Source: Trueperaceae bacterium (lineage in GTDB: Bacteria; Deinococcota; Deinococci; Deinococcales; Trueperaceae). From it: 64,000 bases of DNA. Shown here piece after piece: positions 1,220 through 17,636 of this stretch. Made by a program: the position numbers and the translations under genes. Below the pieces are notes generated by a model that was not told the DNA's origin, did no database searches, and worked only from the letters and a program-made list of their open reading frames with translations. The first letter of the stretch is position 1. Each line of letters opens with the position of its first letter. The stretch spans positions 96,001 through 160,000 of the forward strand of contig JAXHNB010000005.1 of assembly GCA_034520945.1 (NCBI GenBank). Direction: 5' to 3'.

Positions 1220-2038
1220 GTGTTGGCCAAACGGATCATTCCCTGCCTCGACGTGCACGCCGGACGGGTGACGCGCGGGCAACAGTTCGGACGCGCGGAG
1301 GCGGGCGAGCTGGACGACGTCGGCGACCCGGTCGCGTTGGCGTTGCGCTACGACGCCCAGGAGGCGGACGAGTTGGTGCTGTACGACATCACCGCCACGG
1401 CAGAGGGGCGCGCGGCGATCCTCGACGTCGCCACCCGCGTGGCGGAGCGCTGCTTCATGCCGCTCACCATCGGCGGCGGGGTGCGGACGCTGGAGGACGT
1501 GCGCGCCTTGTTCCTGGCCGGGGCGGACAAGGTGTCGATCAACTCCGGGGCGGTGGCCGATCCGGAGCTGATCCGGCGGGCCTCCGACCACTTCGGCGCG
1601 CAAGCGGTGGTGCTGTCCATCGACGTGAAGCGGCGCGGCTCGGGGGACGGCTGGGACGTGTACGTCGCCGGCGGGCGCAAGGAGACGGGACTGGACGCGG
1701 TTGCCTGGGCCACGCGCGGGCAGGAACTGGGTGCCGGCGAGATCGTGCTGAACTCGATCGACGCCGACGGCATGAAGACCGGCTACGACCTGGGGGCGAC
1801 GCGGACGGTGGCCCGCGCGGTCGACCTGCCGGTGGTGGCCTCGGGCGGCGCAGGTCACAGTGATCACCTGCGCGACGTGCTGCAGCTCGGCGAGGCGGAC
1901 GCCGCGCTGGCGGCCGGCATCTTCCACCGCGGCGAGACGACGGTCGGCGACGTCAAGCGGCGCCTGGCCGCCACCGGCGTGCCGGTCCGGCTGGACGCGC
2001 TGGATCACCTCGACGCGAAGGGAGCACCGACGGCATGA
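1220..2038 (+). CDS. hisF: Imidazole glycerol phosphate synthase cyclase subunit
   Basis: [48 protein letters not shown] at 1220 chosen because it gives the canonical N-terminus and lies 7 nt after TATCGT. Confidence 0.97.
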
Positions 2039-3195
2039 GCGACGACGCGCCTGAGACGCTGCACCCCGAGACGCTGGCCGTCCACGGCGGCCAGCGGCCC
2101 GACCCCGCCACCGGCGCCGTCGTGCCGCCCATTCATCCTGCGACGACCTTCGTCCGCAATGATGACGGCCAGCCGCGGGCCGGCTGGACGTACGCACGCA
2201 GCGGCAACCCCACCCGTGAGGCGCTGGAGGCGGCGTTGACGGCGCTGCAACCCGGCGCCGGCGCGTGCGCGGCGTTCGCGTCCGGCTCGGCGGCCGCAGC
2301 GGCGGTGATGCGGATCGTCGAGCCGGGCGGGCACGTGCTGCTGCCCCTCGACATGTACCACGGCATTCGGACGCTGCTGCAAGGGGAACACCGCCGCTGG
2401 GGCCTGACGGTCGCCTTCGTCGACATGGCGGACGCAGGCGCCGTCCAGGAGGCCCTCACGGACGGCGCCTCGCTGGTATGGATCGAGACGCCGTCCAACC
2501 CTCGCCTGCTGCTGACCGACGTGCGCGCGGTGGCCGAGGCGGCGCACGCGGCCGGCGCCCGGGTGGCGGTCGACGCCACCTGGACGCCGCCGCCGCTGCA
2601 GGACCCGTTCGCCCTGAACGCCGACCTGGTGGTCCATGCCACCACCAAGTACCTGGCCGGCCACAGCGACGTGGTGGGGGGTGCCGTGCTGGCCCGGTCC
2701 GAAGAGGACGCCGCCTTCGCGCGGGTGCGCTGGCTGCAGCGGCACGAGGGCGCGGTGCCGTCGCCGTTCGACGCCTGGTTGACGCTGCGGGGGCTCCGGA
2801 CGCTGGCGTTGCGCATGCGCGCGGCCTGCGCGGGCGCGGAACGCATCGCGGCCTTCCTGGCGGAGCACGACGCGGTGCTGGAGGTGCACCACCCCAGCCT
2901 GGCCACCCACCCGCAACACGAGCTGGCGCGCGCGCAGATGACGTCGTTCGGGGCGATGCTCAGCGTGCGGGTGCGGGGTGGCGCCGAGGCGGCGGCGCGC
3001 GTCGCGTCGGCCACCCGTTTGTTCACGCGCGCCACCAGCCTGGGCGGGGTGGAGAGCCTGATCGAGCACCGCGCGCCCGTGGAGGGGCCGGACACCGCCA
3101 CGCCGCCCGACCTGCTCCGCATCTCGGTCGGGATCGAGCATCCCGACGACCTGATCCGCGACCTGGCGCGGGCGCTCGGGCGCGTGGACGGGTAG
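2035..3195 (+). CDS. Cystathionine gamma-synthase/lyase family PLP enzyme (housekeeping-context paralog)
   Basis: [30 protein letters not shown] (PLP Lys), [15 protein letters not shown] overlap with hisF. Confidence 0.88.
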
Positions 3196-5023: not shown

Positions 5024-6187
5024 TCAGCGCACGAACAGGTCGCGCGGGAAGTCGGTGATGCGCTCGCCCCCCTCGGCGGTGACGCGGATGGTTTCGGTGC
5101 ACCCGATCCCCCCCTTGCCCGGCATCTGGACCCAGGGCAGAAGGTGAAACGTCATGTTCTCCTGCAGGGGACGGGTCTCGCCGGGCTTCATGCTGAGGAT
5201 CTGCCCCTCGCCCCAGTCGGGCGGGACGGCGATGCCGACGGAGTAGGCCACCCGCGACGCCTGCATGCCGCCGAAGCCGAACTCGGCGATCACCTGACGC
5301 GCGCGGTGGTCGACGTCGCCGGCGGGGACGCCCGGCGCGACCGTGGCCAGGGCGGCGTCGAAGGCCGCCTGGACGGCTTCGAACGCGTGGCGGGCGGCCG
5401 GGTCGGGATCGCCGATCATCACGGTGCGCATCATGGGGGCGTGGTAGCGGCTGCGGCAGCCGGAGATCTCGAGGAACAGGGTGTCCTGGGCTTCCAGGCG
5501 GCGTCCGGACCAGGTGGCATGGCCGATGGCGCCCCGCTCGCCGGAGGCGACGAACGGCACGATGGAGGGCCACTCGCTCCCGGCGCGGATCATGGCGGAC
5601 ATCACCTCCGCCGCCACGTCGTTCTCGGTGCTGCCGGCCCGGGCCGCGTCGACGCCGGCCTGCATGCCGGCCTCGGTGGTGCGTGCCGCGGCGCGGATGC
5701 GCTCGATCTCCAGGGGCGACTTGACGAGGCGGCCGGCCTCGACCAGCCCGGAGCCGTCGATCCAGTCGACCTCGGGGAGCAAGGAGAACAGGCGGTCCTG
5801 CTGGGCTGCCGTGAAGAACCAGCCGTCGCGTTCGTACCCGATCCGGCCCCGGTCGAGCCCCATGGCGGTCAGCTCGCCGACGAGGATCTTCATCGGATCC
5901 TGGTCGTCGCGGTAGCCGACGTTGTGCTCCGGCTCGATCCAGCTGAGGGCGTCCATGCCGCTGATCTCGAGCAGGCGCGACACCGCGGTGGGCTCGCCGT
6001 ACAGCGGCACGATCAGGCCCTGCCACCAGTAGTGCCCCGGGCTCTCGAAACCGGTGAGGTAGGTGATGTTCTCGGGCGTGGTGGTGATCATGGCAATGAC
6101 GCCGACGTCGTCCATGCGCTCGCGCAAGGCGCCTAAGCGAGCCTGGTACTCGCGGGTGGGGAAGGGAAGCCTGTCGTGGTCTCGCAT
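5024..6187 (-). CDS. Creatinase/M24-fold hydrolase, EutD/DoeA (ectoine hydrolase)-like
   Basis: LPFPTREYQARL N-terminus, KSPLEI, LEISGC..RYHAP..RT and PPDWGE motifs. The metal-binding Asp/His set of aminopeptidase P is not evident. Divergent from the ehu/eut operon; GGAG SD before the ATG. Confidence 0.75.
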   Translation of the reverse strand: MRDHDRLPFPTREYQARLGALRERMDDVGVIAMITTTPENITYLTGFESPGHYWWQGLIVPLYGEPTAVSRLLEISGMDALSWIEPEHNVGYRDDQDPMKILVGELTAMGLDRGRIGYERDGWFFTAAQQDRLFSLLPEVDWIDGSGLVEAGRLVKSPLEIERIRAAARTTEAGMQAGVDAARAGSTENDVAAEVMSAMIRAGSEWPSIVPFVASGERGAIGHATWSGRRLEAQDTLFLEISGCRSRYHAPMMRTVMIGDPDPAARHAFEAVQAAFDAALATVAPGVPAGDVDHRARQVIAEFGFGGMQASRVAYSVGIAVPPDWGEGQILSMKPGETRPLQENMTFHLLPWVQMPGKGGIGCTETIRVTAEGGERITDFPRDLFVR

Positions 6188-6235
6188 GTATGGACTCCCG
6201 TTCGCGGCGGTGCCGAACGTGGTCGGCGCGGCTGG

Positions 6236-6264
6236 TTGACAGGGGCGAGGCGTCCCCGTAGACT
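6236..6264 (+). promoter_or_regulatory. Sigma70-type promoter for the GntR-led ectoine operon
   Basis: TTGACA (6236-6241), 17 nt spacer, TAGACT (6259-6264). Confidence 0.8.
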
Positions 6265-6281
6265 TCGCACAGGTACGCAAC

Positions 6282-6395: not shown

Positions 6396-7070
6396 GTGCC
6401 AGAAGGCCGAGACGTGGGCTCGATCTACCGGCTGCTACGCGAGCGGATCGCGTTGCTCGACTACCCGCCGGGCACCCTCCTGAGCGAGAACCGTCTGGCG
6501 CGCGAATTCGGCGTCAGCCGTACCCCCATCCGGCGCGTGCTGCACCGGTTGGAGTTCGACGGGCTGGTCAGCGTCGAGCGGGGCGTCGGCACGCTGGTGA
6601 CGTCGGTCGACGTGCGCTACCTGAAGCAGGTGTACGATCTCAGGTTGGCGCTGACCCACGTGATCGCCGAGCTGGACCCGTCGTTGGTGTCGCAGGACGA
6701 GATCGAACGGCTGCGCCAGCTGCTGACCTCGACCCGGACGCTGGCCGGCACGGGCGACGCCTCCGGCCTGGCCCGCGCGTATCTGTACTTCAACGAGACC
6801 GTCACGCGGGCGATCGGCAACGAGCCGCTGCGCGAGATCGCCGACCGGCTGTTCTACCTCACCCAACGGACCTGGTTGGAGGCGCTGCCCGCCTTGGACT
6901 GGGACCACGAGGTCGAGACCGTCTGCAACGAGATCGAGGCCACCGCCGACGCGCTCGAACAGGGCGACATGCGCGCCGTCGCCGACGTGCGCCGGCACTA
7001 CATGATCGACTGCATCCATCGCGTCGGCACGTACCTTGGTACGTTCGACGCCACGAGCGAACCGTCATGA
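6396..7070 (+). CDS. GntR family transcriptional regulator (FadR/FCD type)
   Basis: YPPGTLLSENRLAREFGVSRTPIRRVL wHTH plus helical C-terminal domain, 224 aa; AAGGAG SD. Confidence 0.92.
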   Translation: MPEGRDVGSIYRLLRERIALLDYPPGTLLSENRLAREFGVSRTPIRRVLHRLEFDGLVSVERGVGTLVTSVDVRYLKQVYDLRLALTHVIAELDPSLVSQDEIERLRQLLTSTRTLAGTGDASGLARAYLYFNETVTRAIGNEPLREIADRLFYLTQRTWLEALPALDWDHEVETVCNEIEATADALEQGDMRAVADVRRHYMIDCIHRVGTYLGTFDATSEPS

Positions 7071-7122
7071 ACCGCCCGTCCACACCCCGATGGGGACCGG
7101 ACGCGGCCAAAGGAGGAACGAC

Positions 7123-8334
7123 GTGAACGAACGAGATCGGATCGGAACGGCGACGCGCGCCGTGTGGGGCGGCGAGGAGGTCGCCCGCGCGGGTGGGGCG
7201 ACCCAGGTGCCGGTGGTGCACAGCGTGTCGTTCGGCTACGACGACCTGGAGCACTGGCGCGACGTCGCCCTGGAGCGCACCGAGGGCCATATCTACAGCC
7301 GCAACACCAACCCCACCGTTGCGGTGTTCGAGGAGAAGATCCGGCTCCTGGAGGGGGCCGAGGCCGCCACCAGCTTCGCCACCGGGATGGCGGCGATCAG
7401 CAACACGCTGTTCACGCTGCTGGCCCCCGGCGACCGCGTCGTGTCGGTCAAGGACACCTACGGCGGCACCAGCCGACTGTTCCTGGACTGGGTGCCCAAG
7501 TTCGGCATCGACGTCGCACTGTGCGACACCGGCGACACCGAGGCCCTGCTACGCGAGATCGACGCGGGGTGCACCGTGCTGTACCTCGAGACCCCCACCA
7601 ACCCGACCTGCAAGATCCTGGACATCCGGCGCTTGGCGCAGCGGGCCAAGGACCGTGGCGCCACGGTGGTGGTCGACAACACCTTCGCCACCCCCGTCAA
7701 TCAGAACCCCCTGGCGTTGGGCGCCGACCTGGTGATCCACAGCGCGACGAAGTACCTCGGCGGCCACGCCGATGCCCTCGGCGGCGCCGTGTGCGGCGAT
7801 CAGGAACTCGTGATGCGCATCTTTCGCTTCCGCGAGGTGAACGGCGCCACGCTGCACCCCGAGGCCGCCTACCTGCTGCTGCGCGGCATGAAGACGCTCG
7901 ACCTGCGCATCGAGCGCCAGAACCACAACGCGATGGAGATCGCCCGGCACTTGGACGGGCACGACTTCGTGGAGCGGGTGTTCTACCCCGGCCTGCCCGC
8001 GCACCCCGGGCACGACGTCGCCCGCGGCCAGATGCGGGGCTTTGGCGGCATGCTGTCGTTTCAGCTGCCCGGCGACTTCGACACCGTCCGTACCTTCCTC
8101 CCCCGCCTCCGCTTCGCGCACCGCGCTGCCAACCTCGGCGCGGTCGAGACGGTGGTGGCACCGCCCCGCACCGGCAGCCACGTCGAGCTGACCGAAGAGG
8201 AGCGCGCCTCGCTGGGCATCCCCGAGACGCTGGTCCGCTACTCCGCCGGCATCGAGGACGTGAACGATCTGATCGGCGATCTCGACCAGGCGCTGGCCCA
8301 CGCCGCCGAGCGGCACCCCAGGCCCACGTCATGA
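7123..8334 (+). CDS. Cystathionine gamma-synthase family PLP enzyme inside the ectoine operon
   Basis: IYSRNTNPT, FATGMAAIS, YLETPTNPT, VDNTFATP, HSATKYLGGH (PLP Lys); AGGAGG SD before GTG 7123. Confidence 0.9.
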   Translation: MNERDRIGTATRAVWGGEEVARAGGATQVPVVHSVSFGYDDLEHWRDVALERTEGHIYSRNTNPTVAVFEEKIRLLEGAEAATSFATGMAAISNTLFTLLAPGDRVVSVKDTYGGTSRLFLDWVPKFGIDVALCDTGDTEALLREIDAGCTVLYLETPTNPTCKILDIRRLAQRAKDRGATVVVDNTFATPVNQNPLALGADLVIHSATKYLGGHADALGGAVCGDQELVMRIFRFREVNGATLHPEAAYLLLRGMKTLDLRIERQNHNAMEIARHLDGHDFVERVFYPGLPAHPGHDVARGQMRGFGGMLSFQLPGDFDTVRTFLPRLRFAHRAANLGAVETVVAPPRTGSHVELTEEERASLGIPETLVRYSAGIEDVNDLIGDLDQALAHAAERHPRPTS

Positions 8335-9380
8335 ACCTCTTCCGCGTCGCACTGGTCGGCTTCGGCACCGTCGGGCAGGGTTTTGCGCGGATCCTGCGGG
8401 ACCATGGCGAGGCCCTGCGCAGCCGTCACGGACTGAATGTTCGCATCACCGCGGTGTCCGACGTACGTCGCGGCAGCCTGCACGATCCCGAAGGCTTGGA
8501 TCTGGACGCCCTGCTGGCCGCGGTCGAGGCGGGCGGCACGCTGGCGGGCGTGTCCGCACGCGACCGCGACTGGGACGCGCTCACCACCATTCAGGGCGCC
8601 GAGGCCGACGTGATGGCCGAGCTGGCCTTCACCGACCTCGACAGCGGCGAACCGGCCCTCACGCACGTGCGTGCCGCCCTGACGCGCGGCCTGCACGTGA
8701 TCACCACCAACAAGGGACCGATCGCGCTGGCCTACCCGGAGCTGGCCGACCTGGCGCGGCGCCACGGCGTCCGCCTCGAGAGCGAAGGCACCGTGATGAG
8801 CGGTACGCCCGCCCTGCACCTCGGCACCGAACTCCTCGCCGTCGCCAACGTCACCCGCATCGAAGGGGTCCTGAACGGCACCAGCAACTACGTACTGACG
8901 CGCATGGAGGCCGGCCTCGACTTCGCCGCCGCGCTCGGGGAAGCGCAGGCGAAGGGGTACGCCGAAGCGGATCCCAGCGGCGACGTGGACGGGATCGACG
9001 CGGCGGGCAAGGTGGTGATCCTCGCCAACCGCGTGATGGGGGCCGAGCTGCGCATGGCCGACGTCCCCCGCGAGGGCATTCGCGCGCTCACCCCCGAACG
9101 GGTCGCCGAGGCGGCCGAGGTTCATGAACGCTGGAAGCTGCTCGGGAGGGTCCGGCGCGACGCGGACGGCAGCGTGCGCGCCGACGTCGCCCCGCGCCGC
9201 CTGTCCGCCACGCATCCCCTGGCCAGCGTCTCAGGCGCCAGCAACGCCGTGACCTTCACCACCGACCTGCTGGGCGACGTGACGCTGGTCGGCCCGGGCG
9301 CGGGCCGGCTCGAGACCGGCTACGCCCTGATCGAGGACCTGCTGGCGCTCCAGCGGCACCATGGAGGGACGCGGGCATGA
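8331..9380 (+). CDS. hom: Homoserine dehydrogenase, short form with no ACT domain
   Basis: GFGTVG Rossmann motif, VITTNKGP, GVLNGTSNYVL, GYAEADPSGDVDGIDAAGK, GPGAG; ATGA overlap with the upstream gene. Confidence 0.9.
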   Translation: MNLFRVALVGFGTVGQGFARILRDHGEALRSRHGLNVRITAVSDVRRGSLHDPEGLDLDALLAAVEAGGTLAGVSARDRDWDALTTIQGAEADVMAELAFTDLDSGEPALTHVRAALTRGLHVITTNKGPIALAYPELADLARRHGVRLESEGTVMSGTPALHLGTELLAVANVTRIEGVLNGTSNYVLTRMEAGLDFAAALGEAQAKGYAEADPSGDVDGIDAAGKVVILANRVMGAELRMADVPREGIRALTPERVAEAAEVHERWKLLGRVRRDADGSVRADVAPRRLSATHPLASVSGASNAVTFTTDLLGDVTLVGPGAGRLETGYALIEDLLALQRHHGGTRA

Positions 9381-10795
9381 AGATGCTGCTCGAAGATCGC
9401 TGGGTGGACCGCAATGAGCGCATCGAGGTGCGGAACCCCGAGAGCGCCGCGGTCGTGGACACGGTGCCGCGCGGGGACGCGGCCGACGCCGAGCGCGCGT
9501 TGACGCACGCCGAGAGCGGCGCGCGGGCCGCCGGCGCCCTGCCGGTGCACGAGCGCATGCGCATCCTTCACGCCGCGGCCGACGCCGTGCTGGACACGCA
9601 CGAGACGTTCGCGCGCCGGATCGCGACCGAGGGGATCAAGACCATCCGCGAGGCGCGCCGCGAGGCGACGCGGTGCGCCGACACGCTGCGCCTGTCCGCC
9701 GAGGAGGCCCGCCGCGCGCACGGCGAGACGGTGCCGTTCGACCAGCGGCCCGGCTCCGAGGGGCGCGTCGGGTACTGGCGTCCCGTCCCGGTCGGCATCG
9801 TGGTGGCCATCACGCCGTTCAACGACCCGCTGAACCTGGTCGCGCACAAGCTGGGGCCCGCCTTGGCGGCCGGCAACGCCGTGGTGCTCAAACCCGACTC
9901 GCGCACGCCCCTCTCCGCCCTGGCGTTGGCGGAGGTCCTGTTCGAGGCGGGGCTCCCAGACGGCATGCTGCAGGTGATCACCGGCCCCGGCTCGGACATC
10001 GGGCCGACTCTGGTCGGCGACCGGCGCGTGCGGACCGTATCGTTCACCGGCGGGCGCGACACCGGCGAGCGGATCGCCCGGCAGGCCGGCCTGAAGAAGC
10101 TCAGCATGGAGCTCGGCTCCAACGCGCCGGCCCTGGTCATGGAGGACGCCGACCTCGACGTGGCGGTGCCCGCCTGCGTCGCCGGCGCCTTCGCCGCGGC
10201 GGGCCAGAACTGCCTGCACGTTCAGCGCGTGTTCGTGCACCGCGCCTGCGCGGACGCGTTCACGGCCCGATTCGTGGAGGGCGCCCGGGCGGTGCGGACC
10301 GGCCCCAAGCTCGACGAGGCCACCGACATGGGGCCCATGATCGACGAGGAGGCCGCCCGGCGCGTCGAGGCCCTGGTGCAGGACGCCGCCGGCGCCGGGG
10401 CCGAGCTGCTGCAGGGTGGGACGCGCGAGGGCAGCGTCATGGCGCCCACCGTGATGGCCGGGGTACCGCCCACGCACGAGCTGGCGCGCGACGAGGTGTA
10501 CGGCCCCGTGACCCTGATCGAGACGTTCCGTGATCCCGCCGAGGCGGTCGCGCGCGCCAACGACGTGGACTTCGGACTCCAGGCGGGGGTGTTCACCCGC
10601 GACCTCGCCGCCGCGCACCGCCTGGCCGACGCACTCCGCTACGGAGGCGTTATGATCAACGACAGCAGCGACTATCGCATCGACGCCATGCCGTTCGGCG
10701 GATTCAAGGGATCCGGCCTGGGGCGGGAGGGCGTACGTTTCGCGATGGAGGCCATGACCGAACCGAAGCTGGTGTGCTTCACGCTGTCCCCTTGA
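9377..10795 (+). CDS. NAD(P)-dependent aldehyde dehydrogenase
   Basis: [22 protein letters not shown] (catalytic Glu), GQNC (catalytic Cys), [20 protein letters not shown]. Confidence 0.92.
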
Positions 10796-10844
10796 CCGGC
10801 CTGGCGGGCGCTCGAGGCACACCCACTCCGCGAAAGGGCTCGAC

Positions 10845-11681
10845 GTGAGCGATTCCCACGCTTCCCCCGTGACCGCCCCCGAGCGCGCGAAGACGTCCGC
10901 GCCCGACGGCCGTCCGCCCATGATCGTGTTCGACAAGGTCCGCAAGGCGTTCGGCGACCTGGTGGTGCTCGACGACCTCGACTTCCAAGCGGCCGAGAAC
11001 GAGAAGGTCGCCATCATCGGGCCCAGCGGCTCGGGCAAGACCACCATCCTCCGCGTGCTGATGACGCTGGTGCGGCCCGACCGCGGTCACGTGTACGTGG
11101 ACGGCCAGTCCCTGTGGCACATGAACGTGGGCGGCAAGGAGGTGCCCGCCACCGAGAAGCACCTTCACGCCATCCGCAGCGACATCGGCATGGTGTTCCA
11201 GCACTTCAACCTGTTCCCGAACATGAACGTGCTGCGCAACGTCACCGAGGCGCCGGTGCACGTGCGCGGCGTCCCGAAGGCCGAGGCCCGCCAGCGCGGC
11301 CTGGACCTGCTCGAGATGGTGGGGCTCAGCGACAAGGCCGACGCGTTTCCCGAACAGCTCTCTGGCGGCCAGAAGCAGCGTGTCGCGATCGCACGGGCGT
11401 TGGCGATGGAACCGAAGGTGATGCTGTTCGACGAGGTCACCAGCGCGCTGGACCCAGAACTGATCGGCGAGGTGCTGGCCATCCTGCGCAAGCTGGCGAC
11501 CGAGACCCAGATGACGATGCTGATCGTCACGCACGAGATGGGCTTCGCCAAGGACGTCGCCGACCGCGTGATCTTCTTCGACGCTGGGCAGGTGGCGGAG
11601 GAGGGCCCGCCCGACAAGATGTTCACCCAGCCGGAGAACCCTCGCACCCAGGAGTTCCTGCGGGCGGTGCTTCAGCACTAG
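10845..11681 (+). CDS. ehuA: Ectoine/hydroxyectoine ABC transporter ATP-binding protein
   Basis: [47 protein letters not shown]; EhuA-type insert ([18 protein letters not shown]); operon context. Confidence 0.88.
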
Positions 11682-11726
11682 GCACGGCCGTGCCGGAGCT
11701 GAAGGGTGAACCGCTCTTCATCGCGA

Positions 11727-11756
11727 TTGGACGCCGGGGCCGGTTCGCGCTATCCT
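11727..11756 (+). promoter_or_regulatory. Possible internal promoter upstream of ehuB
   Basis: TTGGAC, 18 nt spacer, TATCCT within a 325-nt intergenic gap. Confidence 0.4.
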
Positions 11757-12006
11757 GGGTCACGCCGGTGTCCGCAGGCGCTCGACCTTGCCGCGCCACG
11801 AGCGTCGCGCCCCATGGAACCATTCCCCCCAGGTGCGCGACGTCCTCGCGGAGAGGCATGCGTGAGGCGCACGCCACGGAGCGGCCCCCCCGGGCTGCCT
11901 CCGCGCACGTCACCGGCGCTGTCCCGCCGATGGACGGGCCGGCCGACATACGCGCAGCGGCGACCCGCCGCCTGCGTTTCGCCCAGCAAGATCGGAGGTT
12001 CGACAC

Positions 12007-12867
12007 ATGAACAGCGGATTCGCACGCCTTCTCGCCGCCACGCTGCTGCTCGGCATGATCATGAGCTTCGGCTTCGCCCAGCGCTCCCTGTCCGAGATTC
12101 AGGAGAGCGGCCAGGTCACCGTCGTCACCGCCAACGAGATCCCCTACGGGTGGATCGACGACGACGGCGTGCCGCACGGCATCGCCCCCGAAACCGCCGT
12201 GGCGGTGCTCGAGAGCATGGGCATCGACGACATCGAGTGGACCGTCACCGAGTTCGGCTCTCTGATCCCCAGCATCCTGGCCGGCCGGGCCGACATGACG
12301 GCCGCCAGCATGGCGATCCTGCCGGAGCGCTGTGAGCAGGTCGACTACGCCCGCCCGAACTCCAGCTACGGGGAAGGCTTCCTGGTCGAAGCCGGCAACC
12401 CCAAGGACATCCACAGCTACGAGGACTTCCTCGAGAACCCCGACCTGACCATGGGCATCGTGTCCGGCGCGGACCAGCTCGAGTTCGCTCAGGAGATCGG
12501 CATTCCCGGCGGCCAGCTGTCGTTCCTGAACGCCAACGCCGACGCGCCCTCGGCCGTCGTCACCGGCCGCATCGACGCCTACGCCGCGACCAGCGCGACG
12601 GTCGCCGAACTGGCGGCCAGCTCCGATCGCGTGGAGGGCGCCGATCCGTTCGAAGCCCCCATCATCGGCGGCGATCCGGTCCGCAGCTGGGGCAGCTTCA
12701 ACTTCCACCCCGAGGCGGACGCCTTCCGCACAGCCTTCGACGAGGCGCTGGGCGAGTTCCAGCAATCCGACGAGTGGCGCGAGATTCACCTGAGCCACGG
12801 CTTCACCGAGTCGGACGTGAACTCCGCCCTGGCGGCGAGCACCGAGGAGCTCTGCAGCCCCGAGTGA
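12007..12867 (+). CDS. ehuB: Ectoine/hydroxyectoine ABC transporter substrate-binding protein
   Basis: Signal peptide; ANEIPYG, TEFGSLIP, MAILPERCEQV, GNPKDIHSYED, terminal TEELC; GGAGG SD. Confidence 0.88.
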   Translation: MNSGFARLLAATLLLGMIMSFGFAQRSLSEIQESGQVTVVTANEIPYGWIDDDGVPHGIAPETAVAVLESMGIDDIEWTVTEFGSLIPSILAGRADMTAASMAILPERCEQVDYARPNSSYGEGFLVEAGNPKDIHSYEDFLENPDLTMGIVSGADQLEFAQEIGIPGGQLSFLNANADAPSAVVTGRIDAYAATSATVAELAASSDRVEGADPFEAPIIGGDPVRSWGSFNFHPEADAFRTAFDEALGEFQQSDEWREIHLSHGFTESDVNSALAASTEELCSPE

Positions 12868-12874
12868 CCCGCCC

Positions 12875-12902
12875 GCAGGCCCGCTTCGGCGGGCCTGCTT
12901 TT
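12875..12902 (+). terminator. Intra-operon stem-loop / intrinsic terminator after ehuB
   Basis: GCAGGCCCGC-TTCG-GCGGGCCTGC, a perfect 10-bp stem with a UUCG loop, followed by TTTT. Confidence 0.8.
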
Positions 12903-12965
12903 CTATCTTGGTTCCCCGCCGTATGACGTTCGGCGCTCCGCCGGACCGCGACGCCTGGAGGCCTC

Positions 12966-13637
12966 GTGGAAGACCTGCAGCAAATGCTCACCCCCTTGAT
13001 GCGGGGTACGGTCGTGACGCTGCAACTCGCGCTGATCTCGACCGTGTTCGGCGGCATCCTCTCCTTCGCCGCCGGCATCGGCAAGCTGTCGCAGAACGGG
13101 TTCGTCCGGGCGGCGTCGGTCGCGTACATCGAGATCTTCCGCGGCACCTCGCTGCTGGTCCAGATGTTCTGGCTGTTCTTCGCGTTGCCGATCATCGGCG
13201 TCCGGTTCGAGCCCATGACCGCCGGCATTCTGGCTCTCTCGCTCAACATCGGGGCGTACGGCGCCGAGGTGGTCCGCGGTGCCATCCAGTCCGTGCCCAC
13301 CGGCCAGTACGAAGCGGCCGTCGCCGTGAACTTCACGCGGCGCTTCACCCTCTGGAACGTGGTGCTGCCCCAGGCACTGGTCGAGATGATGCCGCCGTTC
13401 GGCAACCTGGTCGTCCAGAACCTGAAGGACACCGCGCTGGTGTCGCTGATCACCCTGGGTGACCTGACCTTTCGCGCCCAGAACTACCGCAACCTCACGC
13501 TCGAGACCATTCCCGTGTTCACCGCCACGCTGTTGATCTACTTTGCGCTGGCGCTGGTGCTCATGGGGGTCATGCGCTGGCTCGAAGGGTGGATCGCGCG
13601 GCGCGTCGGCGTGGTGCACGGCAGGGCGAGCGCCTGA
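12966..13637 (+). CDS. ehuC: Ectoine/hydroxyectoine ABC transporter permease
   Basis: YIEIFRGTSLLVQMFWLFFALP, GAYGAEVVRGAIQSVP.GQYEA. Confidence 0.88.
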   Translation: MEDLQQMLTPLMRGTVVTLQLALISTVFGGILSFAAGIGKLSQNGFVRAASVAYIEIFRGTSLLVQMFWLFFALPIIGVRFEPMTAGILALSLNIGAYGAEVVRGAIQSVPTGQYEAAVAVNFTRRFTLWNVVLPQALVEMMPPFGNLVVQNLKDTALVSLITLGDLTFRAQNYRNLTLETIPVFTATLLIYFALALVLMGVMRWLEGWIARRVGVVHGRASA

Positions 13638-14329
13638 TGCTGTTCGGCATCGAGTGGGACACCAGCACCACCCTAAGCTTCGCCACCACGATCTTCCCGA
13701 TCCTGTTGCGCGGGTTGTGGGTCACCCTCCAGGCGACCGTGCTGGGCTTCGCCATCGCCCTGGTAGTGGGCCTGATCCTGGCGCTGCTCCGCATGGCGCC
13801 CAGCCGCCTCGTGTCGTGGCCCGTCGCCGTGTTCCTGGAGTTCGTGCGCGACACGCCGCTGCTGGTGCAGCTGTACTTTTTGTTCTTCGTGCTGCCCGAG
13901 ATCGGCATCGTGCTGCCGGCGTTCCTGACCGGCGCGATCGCGCTGGGCATCCAGTACTGCGGCTACACCGCCGAGGTGTACCGCGCCGGCATCGAGGCCA
14001 TCCCGCGCGGCCAGTGGGAGGCCGCCACCGCCCTCAACATGCCCGCCCGCCTGACCTACCGGCACGTGGTGGTCCCGCAGGCGATCCCTCGGATCGTCCC
14101 GGCGCTGGGCAACTACCTCGTCTCCATGCTCAAGGACACCGCCATCCTGTCCGCCATCACCGTCCTGGAGATGCTGTCGGTCGCCAAGATCATCGGCGAC
14201 CGCACCTTCCGCTACTTCACGCCCATCACCATGGTTGGCGCGCTGTTCCTGATCGTCACGCTGGCCTCGGCCTGGCTGGTCCGCATCATCGAACACCGCC
14301 TGCCGAAGACCGGCATTCCGCTGCGTTGA
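13637..14329 (+). CDS. ehuD: Ectoine/hydroxyectoine ABC transporter permease
   Basis: MLFGIEWD, EFVRDTPLLVQLYFLFFVLP, YTAEVYRAGIEAIPRGQWEA; TGATG overlap with ehuC. Confidence 0.88.
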   Translation: MLFGIEWDTSTTLSFATTIFPILLRGLWVTLQATVLGFAIALVVGLILALLRMAPSRLVSWPVAVFLEFVRDTPLLVQLYFLFFVLPEIGIVLPAFLTGAIALGIQYCGYTAEVYRAGIEAIPRGQWEAATALNMPARLTYRHVVVPQAIPRIVPALGNYLVSMLKDTAILSAITVLEMLSVAKIIGDRTFRYFTPITMVGALFLIVTLASAWLVRIIEHRLPKTGIPLR

Positions 14330-14333
14330 ATGC

Positions 14334-15341
14334 ATGCATGATCCCCTGCCCCCCTCGGCCCGGGACGTGTGGCGCGCACGCGCCCGCATCCAAGGGCTGA
14401 TTCGGCGCACCCCCCTGCTGCCGGCCCCCGAGTTCGCTGCGCACGACGGCGCTGCGCCGGCCGTCTGGATCAAGGACGAGACGCGGCAGCCCACCGGCGC
14501 GTTCAAGATCCGTGGCGCCGCCAGCGCGTTGCGCGCCTTGCCGGACGACGTCGTGGCGCGCGGCGTGGTCGCCGTCTCCACCGGCAATCACGGCCGGGCC
14601 GTCGCGCACGTGGCGCGCGCCCTCGGCGTCCCCGCCCGCGTCTACGTCTCCTCGCGCGTGCCCCCCGACAAGCTGGACGCCCTCCGCGCCGCCGGCGCCC
14701 GGGTCGAGGTGCACGGCGATTCGCAGGACCAGGCCGAGGACGCCGCCCGCGCCCGCGTGGAGACGGACGGTGGCACGCTGATCCCGCCGTTCGACCACGT
14801 AGGCGTCATCGCCGGCCAAGGCACCCTCGGCCTCGAACTGCTGGAGGACCTGCCGGACCTTGACACCGTCCTCGCGCCCCTCTCCGGCGGCGGCCTGATC
14901 GCCGGCGTGGCGCGCGCCGTCAAGGCCGTCGCCCCCGACGTGCGCGTGGTGGGCGTATCGATGGAGGCCGGCGCCGCCATGCACGCCAGCCTGTCGGCGG
15001 GCCGCATCGTCGAGACGCCGGAGGCCGACACGCTGGCCGACAGCCTGCAAGGGGGGCTCGGGCGAAGCAACCGCTACACCTTCGCGCTGGTGCGCGCGCT
15101 GGTCGACGACGTGCTCTTGGTCGGCGAACGCGCGCTGGCCGAGGCGATGCGCCACGCCTTCCACCACCACCGGCTGGTCCTGGAGGGAGGCGGCGCCGCG
15201 GCCCTGGCGGCGCTGACCTCCGGCGCGACCCACGTGCGCGGGCCCACAGCCGTGATCGCGTCGGGATCCAACGTCGGCGCAGGGGCGTTCGCGCGGGTGC
15301 TGAGCGGCCGCACGCCTGCTGGAGAGGAACATCGCGCGTGA
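14334..15341 (+). CDS. eutB: Hydroxyectoine utilization dehydratase (threonine dehydratase fold)
   Basis: KDETRQPTGAFKIRGA, STGNHGRA, GDSQDQA, SGGGLIAG, TLADSLQGG; follows ehuD. Confidence 0.85.
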   Translation: MHDPLPPSARDVWRARARIQGLIRRTPLLPAPEFAAHDGAAPAVWIKDETRQPTGAFKIRGAASALRALPDDVVARGVVAVSTGNHGRAVAHVARALGVPARVYVSSRVPPDKLDALRAAGARVEVHGDSQDQAEDAARARVETDGGTLIPPFDHVGVIAGQGTLGLELLEDLPDLDTVLAPLSGGGLIAGVARAVKAVAPDVRVVGVSMEAGAAMHASLSAGRIVETPEADTLADSLQGGLGRSNRYTFALVRALVDDVLLVGERALAEAMRHAFHHHRLVLEGGGAAALAALTSGATHVRGPTAVIASGSNVGAGAFARVLSGRTPAGEEHRA

Positions 15342-16291
15342 ATCAGGTGCGGGTGCTGGCCAAGGACGAACTGGTTCGCCAGGCGCCGCTGACGCTCGAA
15401 GTGGCGGACGAGATCGCCGACGGGTTCGAGCGCCTGGCCGCCGGCGAGGTGCGGCAGCCCCCGGTGACGTCATTGGAGATCCCCGAGGCAGAGGGCGAGC
15501 TGGACGTCAAGACGGCGTACGTGCCCGGCTGGGACTCGTTCTGCGTCAAGTTGTCCACGGGCTTCTTCCGCAACCCGGAGCTGGGCCTCCCCTCGGCCTC
15601 GGGCCTGATGGTGGTCCTGTCGGCCGAGACGGGCCGCCCCTTGGCGGTGCTGCTGGACGACGGCTACCTCACCGAACTCCGCACCGCCGCCGCCGGCGCG
15701 GTCGCCGCCGACGCCTTGGCGCGGCCCGACGCCCGCCACGTCGCCATCCTCGGGGCCGGTGCGCAGGCCCGCTGGCAGCTGGACGCGCTCCGCCTGGTGC
15801 GCAACGTGACGCACGTGGACGTGTGGGCGCGCCGCCCCGCCGCGGCCAAAGCCTTCGCCCGGGCCGCGCGCAAGGAAACCGGCCTGATCGTCACGCCCAG
15901 CACGAGCGTCGCAGACGCGGTGGCCGACGCCGACGTCGTCGTCACGGCCACGCCTGCGCGGGAGCCGCTCCTCTACGCCGACATGCTCCCCCCCGGCGTG
16001 CACGTCACCGCCATGGGGGCCGACGCCGCCGGCAAGCGCGAACTGGCCGCGGACGTGCTGCGCGCGGCCGACGTGCTGGTGGTCGACGCGCTGGCGCAGA
16101 GCCGCACCCTCGGCGAGCTGCAGCACGCCGACGACGCGACGGCCGCCAGGGCGATCCTGCTCGGCGACGTGCTGGCGGGCGAGGCCCCCGGCCGGCGCAC
16201 GGATGCCGACGTCACCGTCTGCGACCTGACGGGCACCGGCGTGCAGGACACGGTCGTCGCCCGCTGGGTGTTGGCCCGACTGGAGGGGTAG
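15338..16291 (+). CDS. eutC: Ornithine cyclodeaminase-family ectoine utilization protein
   Basis: GELDVKTAYVPG, STGFFRNPELGLPS, GYLTELRTAAAGA, DLTGTGVQD. Confidence 0.85.
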   Translation: MNQVRVLAKDELVRQAPLTLEVADEIADGFERLAAGEVRQPPVTSLEIPEAEGELDVKTAYVPGWDSFCVKLSTGFFRNPELGLPSASGLMVVLSAETGRPLAVLLDDGYLTELRTAAAGAVAADALARPDARHVAILGAGAQARWQLDALRLVRNVTHVDVWARRPAAAKAFARAARKETGLIVTPSTSVADAVADADVVVTATPAREPLLYADMLPPGVHVTAMGADAAGKRELAADVLRAADVLVVDALAQSRTLGELQHADDATAARAILLGDVLAGEAPGRRTDADVTVCDLTGTGVQDTVVARWVLARLEG

Positions 16292-16637
16292 GAGCCGGGA
16301 GGCGCCGCGCCGCGGTGTCACGTGGGTGGTTCGTTCGTGAGCCCCTTGCAACTGCGCGAGGCTGCATAGGTCCGTGTACTAGGCGCATACGTCTCACCAT
16401 CCCGTCAGCGCCGAACATACGCCCCCCTGGGGCCCAGTGCCGCGCCGACGGCATGCGCCACATGTGGCACATTCGGCCGCGAAACGCGCGCACGTTTCGG
16501 GGCAGCCCGCAGGTGCCTCCCCGCGGGGCGGTGGGCGGTACGCTGGCCGGCGGACCGGTGGGGCCCTCGTGCGTCGCGACCGCCGCGACGGGACCCCCCT
16601 TGCACCACGCACCTTCGAGCCTTCGAGGAGGATCCCC

Positions 16638-17636
16638 ATGCCCATCCGCCACGTACGTCTCGGCACGCACGGCGTGCTCGTCAGCAACCTGTGCCTCGGC
16701 ACCATGAACTTCGGGTGGCACACCTCGCAAGAGGATTCGTTCCGCATCATGGACCGCGCGCTGGAGCTCGGCATCAACTTCTTCGACACCGCCGACGTGT
16801 ACGGGCGCGGCGGGCAGCACGGCGACACCGAGATCATCCTCGGCAACTGGTTCGCGCAGGGCGGGGGGCGCCGGGACGCCGTCGTGCTGGCCAGCAAGGT
16901 GTACAACCCGGTGCAGCGGGACGAGAACCGCCCGGAACCGAACACGGACGGGCGCAGCCTGTCCGCGTACAAGATCCACAAGCACGCGGAGGGCAGCCTG
17001 CGGCGCCTGCAGACCGACCGCATCGATCTCTACCAGATGCACCACATCGACCGGAACTGCCCATGGGACGAAGCGTGGCAGGCCTTCGACAGCCTGGTGC
17101 AACGCGGTCACATCGTTTACGTCGGGTCCAGCAACTTCGCGGGCTGGGACATCGCCACCGCCTGTCAGGAGGCGTCCAAGCGCGGCCGGATGGGCCTGGC
17201 CAGCGAGCAGAGCATCTACCACCTGAACAACCGCACCGTCGAGCTGGAGGTCATTCCCGCCTGCGAGCACTACGGCCTCGGCCTGTTGCCGTGGAGCCCG
17301 CTGGGTGGCGGCCTGCTCGGCGGCGCGCTCGGCAAGATCGACGAGGGGCGCCGCATGAGCGACAGCTTCATGAAGCGCCTGGAGATGGAGCGCGACAAGA
17401 TCGAGCGCTACGAAGCGTTGTGCCGCGAGCTGGGCGAGGAGCCGGCCACGATCGCCCTGGCCTGGCTGCTGCACGTGCCCGCGGTCACGGCGCCGATCAT
17501 CGGGCCACGCACCGTCGAACAACTGGAGAGCGCGGTGCGCGCCACGGAAGTCACCCTCGACGAGGCGACGTTGGCGCGCCTGGACGAGATCTTCCCCGGG
17601 CCCGGCGGGGACGCGCCGGGGGCGTACGCCTGGTAA
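16638..17636 (+). CDS. Aldo/keto reductase
   Basis: LCLGTMNFG, GINFFDTADVYG, SLRRLQTDRIDLYQMHH, LPWSPLGGGLL; GAGGAGG SD. Confidence 0.93.
   Translation: MPIRHVRLGTHGVLVSNLCLGTMNFGWHTSQEDSFRIMDRALELGINFFDTADVYGRGGQHGDTEIILGNWFAQGGGRRDAVVLASKVYNPVQRDENRPEPNTDGRSLSAYKIHKHAEGSLRRLQTDRIDLYQMHHIDRNCPWDEAWQAFDSLVQRGHIVYVGSSNFAGWDIATACQEASKRGRMGLASEQSIYHLNNRTVELEVIPACEHYGLGLLPWSPLGGGLLGGALGKIDEGRRMSDSFMKRLEMERDKIERYEALCRELGEEPATIALAWLLHVPAVTAPIIGPRTVEQLESAVRATEVTLDEATLARLDEIFPGPGGDAPGAYAW

Follow-up and report, generated by a model that had tools for sequence, protein, structure and literature searches.

Gene content of the locus

The analyzed stretch (the window) comprises 64,000 nucleotides of a Trueperaceae bacterium genome (assembly GCA_034520945.1, contig JAXHNB010000005.1, positions 96,001 to 160,000) and has a G + C content of about 72%. 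A gene at 7123..8334 on its forward strand codes for a pyridoxal phosphate (PLP)-dependent enzyme of the Cys/Met metabolism family, which belongs to the NF006097 (PRK08249) orthogroup and is proposed here to be an L-2,4-diaminobutyrate (DABA) gamma-lyase forming homoserine in an operon for ectoine catabolism. The gene begins with a GTG codon at 7123, lying 7 nt behind a Shine-Dalgarno motif (AGGAGG, 7110..7115, forward strand), and ends with TGA at 8332–8334, in agreement with the boundaries given by an earlier interpretation made without database searches (the sequence-only reading). The surrounding open reading frame (ORF; 7006–8334, forward strand) has a third-position GC of 0.91. The product of 403 amino acids matches the Pfam family Cys_Met_Meta_PP (PF01053) over residues 11–391 (E = 1.3e-126; 422.6 bits vs. 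a threshold of 27). A paralog at 2035–3195 belongs to the same family (377.9 bits) but shares only 35% identity with the PLP enzyme (135/389), so that the two are indeed distinct, as had been read from the letters alone; four full Cys/Met-family genes, the PLP enzyme included, are present in the genome. The paralog is MetB-like (NF005871, 425.5 bits, under the cut-off of 513) and is flanked by hisF and hisIE, with its start overlapping the hisF stop (2035–2038), an arrangement that is repeated in the genomes G008 and G009.

The stop codon of the PLP enzyme gene overlaps the ATG of a homoserine dehydrogenase gene (HomDH; 8331..9380, forward strand; overlap ATGA, 8331–8334), which is an extra, catabolic-type copy (NF004912, 415.9 bits, cut-off 373), a second HomDH being located elsewhere in the genome (C5:328299). 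HomDH in turn overlaps by 4 bases (9377–9380) an aldehyde dehydrogenase gene (ALDH; 9377..10795, forward strand; Pfam Aldedh, 507 bits), whose product reached no NCBIfam equivalog cut-off and is proposed to convert aspartate semialdehyde to aspartate. Further downstream on the same strand are the genes of the ectoine/hydroxyectoine ABC transporter ATPase EhuA (10845..11681; TIGR03005, 395.2 bits, cut-off 345.4), the substrate-binding protein EhuB (12007..12867; TIGR02995, 241 bits, cut-off 190.9) and the permease EhuC (12966..13637; TIGR03004, 270.4 bits, cut-off 196.95), each above its NCBIfam cut-off and together marking the importer as ectoine-specific. They are followed by a second, EhuD-like permease with an uncertain start (13589..14329; Pfam BPD_transp_1), which is 74–80% identical to the protein in the same slot in relatives, by an EutB-like PLP dehydratase (14334..15341; NF005680, 390.3 bits, slightly below the cut-off of 413) and by an EutC-like protein of the ornithine cyclodeaminase family (15338..16291; NF006141, 403.7 bits, slightly below the cut-off of 408). 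An aldo/keto reductase gene (16437..17636, forward strand; Pfam) is an uncertain member of the operon; used as a query, its product was absent from the related clusters examined. A terminator-like hairpin behind ehuB (12875..12898, forward strand; a stem of 10 pairs with a T run behind it) is a consensus match only.

Upstream of the PLP enzyme gene, a GntR-family regulator is encoded at 6396..7070 (forward strand; weak NCBIfam matches to GntR-type regulators), and a GntR gene is kept at the same place in seven related clusters. On the reverse strand, at 5024..6280, lies the divergent gene of a DoeA-like M24 hydrolase (Creatinase_N and Peptidase_M24 in Pfam), a putative ectoine ring-opening enzyme that scores below the cut-offs of the NCBIfam models ectoine_DoeA_2 (376.1 bits, cut-off 575) and ectoine_eutD (238.6 bits, cut-off 613). 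The DoeA slot of the related G016 and G017 clusters is filled by eutD-type proteins above the latter cut-off (683 and 726 bits). Divergent promoter-like sites at 6236–6264 (forward) and 6337–6308 (reverse) are consensus matches only, with two seen vs. 0.4 expected in shuffled sequences. Apart from the diverging hydrolase gene, the PLP enzyme gene is the first enzyme gene after the GntR gene in the forward row, which is the position at the head of the catabolic genes previously described for it. This context supports the assignment of the PLP enzyme to an ectoine-type catabolic operon.

Phylogeny of the PLP enzyme

NF006097, which carries the name "cystathionine gamma-synthase family protein," was the only NCBIfam model passed by the PLP enzyme (662.5 bits, cut-off 600). 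The models of methionine gamma-lyase (MGL) were clearly missed (TIGR01328, 377.9 vs. 549.7 bits; NF005695, 372.8 vs. 666 bits), as were those of MetB and MetZ (NF005871, 358.8 vs. 513; NF006003, 358.9 vs. 522; TIGR01325, 357.5 vs. 510). The NF006097 scores obtained across 41 related genomes were bimodal, 14 genomes reaching 610–668 bits and every other match 404 bits or less. The nearest database proteins are 73–81% identical to the PLP enzyme and, where named, belong to assemblies of Trueperaceae and Deinococcales.

A scan of species genomes yielded 40 orthogroup loci (58–74% identical, from at least 10 phyla) and 40 paralog loci (at most 47% identical), 14 of the latter being named by NCBIfam labels. 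Loci with a stop inside the extended frame (L053, L054, L069, L076, L080, L082, L084, and L094) and two short ones (L087 and L122) were left out of the tree and of the residue counts; among them, L094 (approximately 9983–11224) is a Cys/Met-family homolog in an archaeal assembly with one in-frame stop inside the tblastn match. In a quick maximum-likelihood tree of 83 rows, the orthogroup formed a clade of 41 rows with a Shimodaira–Hasegawa-like approximate likelihood ratio (SH-aLRT) support of 100 and a stem of 0.91, within which the branching order mostly tracks taxonomy. The scores below the NCBIfam cut-offs, the separate position of this clade and the absence of the hallmarks YGC and KD treated below support the placement of the PLP enzyme in a discrete orthogroup that is neither MetB, MetC, MetZ nor MGL. 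A position among the housekeeping MetB, MetC, and MetZ proteins, which would have spoken against the sequence-only reading, was thus not obtained. The expectation that ectoine-linked homologs might group by themselves was borne out for the orthogroup as a whole but not within it: its ectoine-linked members form no sub-clade of their own, since they are spread across Bacillota, Trueperaceae, Rhodocyclales, a gammaproteobacterium, Desulfotignum, and Acidimicrobiales.

Active-site residues

The best-matching solved relatives of the PLP enzyme are L-methionine gamma-lyases (Pseudomonas putida 1gc0 and Fusobacterium 6lxu; 305–320 bits). K210, Y113, and R372 align with K211, Y114, and R375 of 1gc0 and are, like D185, conserved in at least 93% of the 83 aligned rows. 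We take K210 to be the PLP lysine, Y113 to stack on the ring, D185 to be located at the pyridine nitrogen, and R372 to serve the alpha-carboxylate. At the positions of the MGL motifs YGC (Tyr114-Gly-Cys116) and KD (Lys240-Asp241), the PLP enzyme has YGG (113–115) and R237-E238, respectively, both of which are invariant in all 41 orthogroup rows; YGC and KD serve as MGL hallmarks (PMC11568061).

Twenty positions are conserved in at least 93% of the orthogroup rows and at most 12% of the outgroup rows, including N61, T62, E238, I239, A336, V354, and E355. N337 is found in 32 of 41 orthogroup rows vs. Ser in 41 of 42 outgroup rows, and a direct comparison with the P. putida MGL shows Asn337 for Ser340 and GSH for MTH. 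R237, E238, N61, T62, A336, N337, V354, and E355 presumably lie at or beside MGL pocket positions. Two acidic residues confined to the orthogroup would suit a substrate with a cationic gamma-ammonium group.

Linkage to ectoine genes in other genomes

A DoeA gene was located inside the fetched stretch in 14 of the 40 orthogroup loci vs. none of the 40 paralog loci, and EutB-EutC occurred in one further orthogroup locus, again with no paralog locus showing it. Three cluster architectures recur. The first, found in seven Bacillales loci, consists of PucR, DoeA, EutC, the PLP enzyme, an M20 amidohydrolase, HomDH, and ALDH, and in two of these loci (L049 and L055) the M20 gene is a 35–36% identical variant on the opposite strand, a few kb upstream. 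The second has the order DoeA-DoeB-PLP enzyme in a Denitromonas (L078) and an Azoarcus (L069) assembly and the variant order PLP enzyme-DoeA-DoeB in an Acidimicrobiales assembly (L090). DoeB proteins encoded beside the PLP ortholog scored 592 and 464 bits (cut-off 402.7), and the Azoarcus DoeB is 74% identical to the Denitromonas copy. The third is represented by seven readable Trueperaceae clusters (the window, G019, G005, G017, G007, G016, and G002) with GntR, the PLP enzyme, HomDH-ALDH in some of them, Ehu, EutB, EutC, and a DoeA that is either DoeA_2-like or of the eutD type (683–726 bits). In addition, a Lutispora cluster contains DoeA, M20, a TRAP transporter, the PLP enzyme, and an aminotransferase. 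M20 amidohydrolases are present in the seven Bacillales clusters and in L070.

Altogether, a deacetylase (a true DoeB or an M20 protein) is encoded in all 11 non-Trueperaceae clusters with readable flanks; two more such clusters are cut by contig ends and stand outside this count. The PLP orthologs of the clusters with DoeB or M20 are 61–69% identical to the window enzyme. In all three architectures the PLP enzyme occupies the place of the absent DABA transaminase, and the deacetylase, wherever present in a cluster, adjoins the PLP enzyme.

Two further observations were made on the surroundings of these genes. The Rhodocyclales DoeA-DoeB-PLP enzyme rows (L078, 11228–18086; L069, 8364–12455) adjoin genes of the E3, E1, and E2 components of a 2-oxoacid dehydrogenase, the E3 gene of L078 beginning 46 bases past the PLP enzyme gene; this neighborhood could be a hint of 2-oxobutyrate as product or could reflect descent. 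At L156 (G024:C2, approximately 9528–13270), a DoeA_2-like hydrolase 73% identical to that of the window is found beside an OpuAC-type ABC importer only, and since no other ectoine genes surround this copy, the DoeA_2-like subfamily may not always act on ectoine.

The homoserine module and canavanine gamma-lyase

A combination of a Cys_Met_Meta_PP enzyme with an ABC amino acid importer, HomDH, and ALDH, as seen in the window, also occurs in Pseudomonas canavaninivorans and Rhizobium leguminosarum, where it belongs to the pathway of canavanine gamma-lyase. In this pathway, elimination of hydroxyguanidine by the lyase is followed by addition of water to the vinylglycine ketimine and release of homoserine, which purified homoserine dehydrogenase, ALDH, and aspartase convert via aspartate to fumarate (PMC9533460). 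A plasmid cluster of R. leguminosarum corresponds in its genes to those described for canavanine degradation: it encodes a B3/4 protein, an ABC importer, and a Cys/Met-family enzyme together with an SMR exporter, HomDH, ALDH, dapA, and aspartase, and its HomDH and ALDH genes show the same 4-base overlap as those of the window. The window HomDH and ALDH are 48 and 51% identical to this pair, and the window HomDH is 46–50% identical to plasmid-borne rhizobial HomDH proteins. In contrast, the lyases themselves share only 37% identity and fall into different clades, on long branches of the quick tree, and E238 and E355, invariant in the orthogroup, are replaced by Leu and Gly in the rhizobial lyase, which was identified in L128 by its cluster position rather than by an accession from PMC9533460. 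The clusters also differ in their remaining genes, with B3/4, Gdx, and aspartase in the canavanine cluster and Ehu, Eut, and DoeA in the window. The PLP enzyme is therefore no ortholog of canavanine gamma-lyase but resembles it in being paired with a catabolic HomDH and an ALDH, a likeness of working mode and not of membership. HomDH-ALDH genes are adjacent to the PLP ortholog in the seven Bacillales clusters and in four further Trueperaceae genomes.

A Rhizobium acidisoli plasmid (L129, 7300–17026) encodes AsnC, HomDH, ALDH, an ABC importer, a Cys/Met-family enzyme of 423 amino acids, and aspartase, and may represent a third system leading by a gamma-lyase to homoserine. The lyase of this plasmid groups with that of the canavanine cluster on long branches.

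Proposed function

The favored reading is that the PLP enzyme is a gamma-lyase or gamma-replacement enzyme of the cystathionine gamma-synthase fold that stands in for DoeD/Atf, the DABA transaminase, in an operon of ectoine/hydroxyectoine catabolism and converts DABA to homoserine, a proposal to which we give about an even chance of being correct. From the observed gene, its family and orthogroup, the operon structure and the conserved neighborhoods we infer the following substrate, product and order of steps. EhuABCD would import ectoine, the DoeA-like hydrolase would open its ring to N-acetyl-DABA, and a putative deacetylase would free L-2,4-diaminobutyrate, while EutB and EutC would bring the hydroxylated form into the same pool. 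The PLP enzyme would bind DABA by its alpha-amine, eliminate the gamma-ammonium to form a vinylglycine ketimine and add water, giving L-homoserine and NH4+ by a chemistry as in canavanine gamma-lyase. The translationally coupled HomDH and ALDH would finally oxidize homoserine via aspartate semialdehyde to L-aspartate, and the NAD(P)-dependent HomDH together with the PLP enzyme would replace transamination.

The homoserine-forming gamma-elimination with addition of water fits the genes in that the PLP enzyme stop overlaps the HomDH start and HomDH overlaps ALDH. The replaced transaminase is missing from the locus: no class III DABA transaminase is encoded in or near the cluster, the best TIGR00709 match in the genome reaches 286 bits (cut-off 401.6) at another place, and the PLP enzyme itself has no match to Pfam Aminotran_3 and thus is not of the class III DoeD/Atf type. 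The ORF of the best class III aminotransferase is whole and generic, the TGA in its match being due to an extension of the alignment beyond the stop codon. EctC was not found in a search without positive control. As to the substrate, free DABA is likelier than N-gamma-acetyl-DABA, as judged from the deacetylase present in all 11 readable non-Trueperaceae clusters. The sequence-only reading had named the acetylated compound and mentioned the gamma-amino group as an aside; its ectoine operon, its non-housekeeping enzyme and its homoserine-forming gamma-elimination fit the data, whereas the acetylated substrate is less supported and the aside is now favored.

Several findings weigh against this proposal. 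In 22 of the 25 orthogroup genomes that carry no ectoine genes near the ortholog, a DoeA homolog (E 1e-50 or better) is absent from the entire assembly (of uncertain completeness), and since only 3 contain one, the orthogroup extends beyond ectoine breakdown and its substrate may be a more general one. Among the 41 relatives, the ortholog is present in 14 and DoeA in 11, with both in 9. G008 and G009 (L147 and L146) have kept the PLP ortholog at the syntenic site, with the MetB-like paralog and hisIE upstream and ABC exporters downstream, but none of its partners, DoeA, GntR, HomDH, ALDH, Ehu, and Eut all being absent. Conversely, G022 has a row of GntR-HomDH-ALDH-EutB-EutC-DoeA but nowhere a PLP ortholog, its best Cys/Met match being 45% identical, which is either a case of loss of the PLP enzyme or a sign of its dispensability; in this row (L155, G022:C56:1–19900, approximately 8750–15270) DoeA is of the eutD type (683 bits) and the gap between GntR and HomDH amounts to only 30 bases. 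G017 and G002 possess the PLP enzyme but only a housekeeping-like HomDH (41–42% identical) and no catabolic HomDH/ALDH anywhere. The HomDH-ALDH pair accompanies the gene in only 8 of the 40 orthogroup loci, so that homoserine as product is supported only for the subset of loci with this pair. The nearest solved structures are those of MGLs, which release 2-oxobutyrate, and the mapping of the pocket positions stems partly from the MGL literature and from sequence alignment.

The missing deacetylase of the window genome belongs to the same group of findings. In this genome, which is 97% complete, the best DoeB match has 76 bits (TIGR02994, cut-off 402.7), and no match was obtained to the DoeB2 model NF038260 or to the Halobacillus M20 protein. 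Three AstE/AspA-like genes were considered as deacetylase candidates and rejected, their products being 30% identical to DoeB and encoded beside SbcCD-like, sugar-transport and peptide-transport genes. Two of the three belong to a repeated segment of about 7 kb, which occurs twice at a distance of 17 kb (in L152 and L153, G000:C2:57000–70500 and 74000–87500) and contains a 202-amino-acid ORF, a 1208-amino-acid ORF without Pfam match, a Metallophos protein, and the AstE/AspA-like protein. None of the 14 M20-domain matches in the genome, 11 of which span the domain, is near the cluster.

Finally, the copies in Bacteroidota have peptidase-like and beta-lactamase-family genes as neighbors, and AsnC regulators adjoin other copies. 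The Bacteroidota neighbors (L056, L068, L071, L077, L080, and L082: M20, S9, M24 aminopeptidase P, S41, and beta-lactamase-family hydrolases) suggest a substrate released from peptides. As most carriers lack an ectoine hydrolase, the enzyme may mark a general use or detoxification of free diaminobutyrate; a module of wider use, fed with DABA from other sources, would fit these findings, as would a different general substrate.

Alternative readings

The alternative that survives best, although unlikely, is a deaminating, MGL-like gamma-lyase that would produce 2-oxobutyrate and ammonia from DABA, homoserine or methionine, with HomDH and ALDH serving another branch or the salvage of a side product. 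It would agree with the MGL nature of the closest solved relatives (320 bits), with the 32 of 40 orthogroup loci without HomDH-ALDH, with the AsnC-type regulators adjoining the gene in four loci and with the 2-oxoacid dehydrogenase genes near it in L078 and L069. These two loci, however, are close relatives and count as a single observation, and their gene orientation differs; moreover, the translational coupling to HomDH-ALDH in the window, the adjacency of this pair in the seven Bacillales clusters and four Trueperaceae genomes, and the lack of YGC, KD and a sufficient TIGR01328 score (377.9 vs. 549.7 bits) all speak against this alternative.

Slightly less probable still is an enzyme acting on N-gamma-acetyl-DABA, from which it would expel acetamide to give homoserine, so that the Trueperaceae route would need no deacetylase. 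The seven readable Trueperaceae clusters indeed contain no M20 or DoeB gene, DoeB reaches its cut-off in none of the 41 relatives, no DoeB2-like M20 protein was found in the 97%-complete window genome, and a weakly matched gene of the acetamidase/formamidase family (66 and 39 bits) is located elsewhere in that genome (C2:105560–106177). Nevertheless, orthologs 61–69% identical to the enzyme adjoin DoeB or M20 in the 11 readable clusters outside the Trueperaceae, and in 22 of the 25 other orthogroup genomes an ectoine hydrolase, as a source of N-gamma-acetyl-DABA, is lacking. An unlinked DoeB2-like M20 protein (230–351 bits) is furthermore encoded in eight of the nine related genomes, other than G000, in which DoeA is clustered with the PLP enzyme or with HomDH-ALDH (G002, G004, G005, G006, G007, G016, G017, G019, and G022); the only such match of G004 (229.9 bits) lies at a contig end. 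The cluster encodes no amidase, and amide nitrogens are known to be poor leaving groups. If this reading were true, ectoine would be converted to aspartate without deacetylase and transaminase by a hydrolase, a PLP lyase, HomDH, and ALDH, and the lyase would be the first PLP enzyme known for gamma-elimination with an amide leaving group.

A different ectoine-derived amino acid as substrate, such as 3-hydroxy-2,4-diaminobutyrate from hydroxyectoine, is doubtful: EutB and EutC homologs accompany the enzyme in many clusters, and their roles are themselves only proposed (PMC13188858), but in L049, L055, L059, L069, L070, and L090 the enzyme is present although the fetched stretch contains neither EutB nor EutC. 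Equally improbable is a housekeeping enzyme of sulfur amino acid metabolism (of the MetB, MetC, MetZ or cystathionine gamma-lyase type) merely located next to ectoine genes, which the NCBI family name, the many orthologs in unrelated contexts and the solitary gene in G008 and G009 would allow, but which is contradicted by the three other full Cys/Met-family genes of the genome, including the MetB-like one between hisF and hisIE, by every named equivalog cut-off being missed by more than 150 bits, by the DoeA adjacency of 14/40 vs. 0/40, and by the stop/start overlap with the next gene.

Relation to known ectoine catabolism and implications

The window shares EhuABC, EutB- and EutC-like proteins, an M24 DoeA-like hydrolase and an ALDH for the last step with the canonical systems, DoeABCD of Halomonas elongata and EutABCDE-Ssd-Atf of Ruegeria pomeroyi and Sinorhizobium meliloti. 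It differs from them by the lack of DoeB/EutE and of the class III DoeD/Atf, instead of which the Cys/Met PLP enzyme and HomDH are encoded, by a small GntR protein in place of EnuR as regulator, and by a Trueperaceae-like host outside the Proteobacteria, to which ectoine consumers were considered restricted in a 2018 review (PMC5924519). A doeBDAC cluster is known from Methylomicrobium alcaliphilum (PMC7192451), and the NCBIfam models DoeA_2 and DoeB_2 represent an already curated second pair of hydrolase and deacetylase.

Putative Gram-positive clusters have been described provisionally in a 2026 paper as "pucR-eutBCD-atf / abgB-thrA-adh," and the available portion of it names the gene "atf" as an aminotransferase and gives no reaction (PMC13188858). 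The words "cystathionine" and "deinococc" are absent from its text. The order in Halobacillus, Salimicrobium, and Shouchella is PucR, DoeA, EutC, the PLP enzyme, M20, HomDH, and ALDH, and the window enzyme is 62–68% identical to the product of the gene in the "atf" position; judged by this gene order, "atf" would correspond to the PLP enzyme orthogroup. The window differs from these clusters by the absence of M20 (abgB) and by GntR in the place of PucR. A literature search found no paper on a PLP-dependent conversion of DABA to homoserine or on a DABA gamma-lyase, and nothing relevant that links ectoine degradation to cystathionine gamma-synthase.

Ectoine is a widespread osmolyte, and the proposed function, if true, would supply the missing step of a second, transaminase-free way of consuming it in Deinococcota, Bacillota, and others. 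It would add a new reaction, the hydrolytic gamma-deamination of 2,4-diaminobutyrate to homoserine, to those of the cystathionine gamma-synthase fold. The label "cystathionine gamma-synthase family protein" would be corrected for an orthogroup whose members are 58–81% identical across at least 10 phyla, as would the label "atf" of the 2026 paper. The module of gamma-lyase, HomDH, and ALDH, first shown for canavanine, would then have been reused for another substrate.

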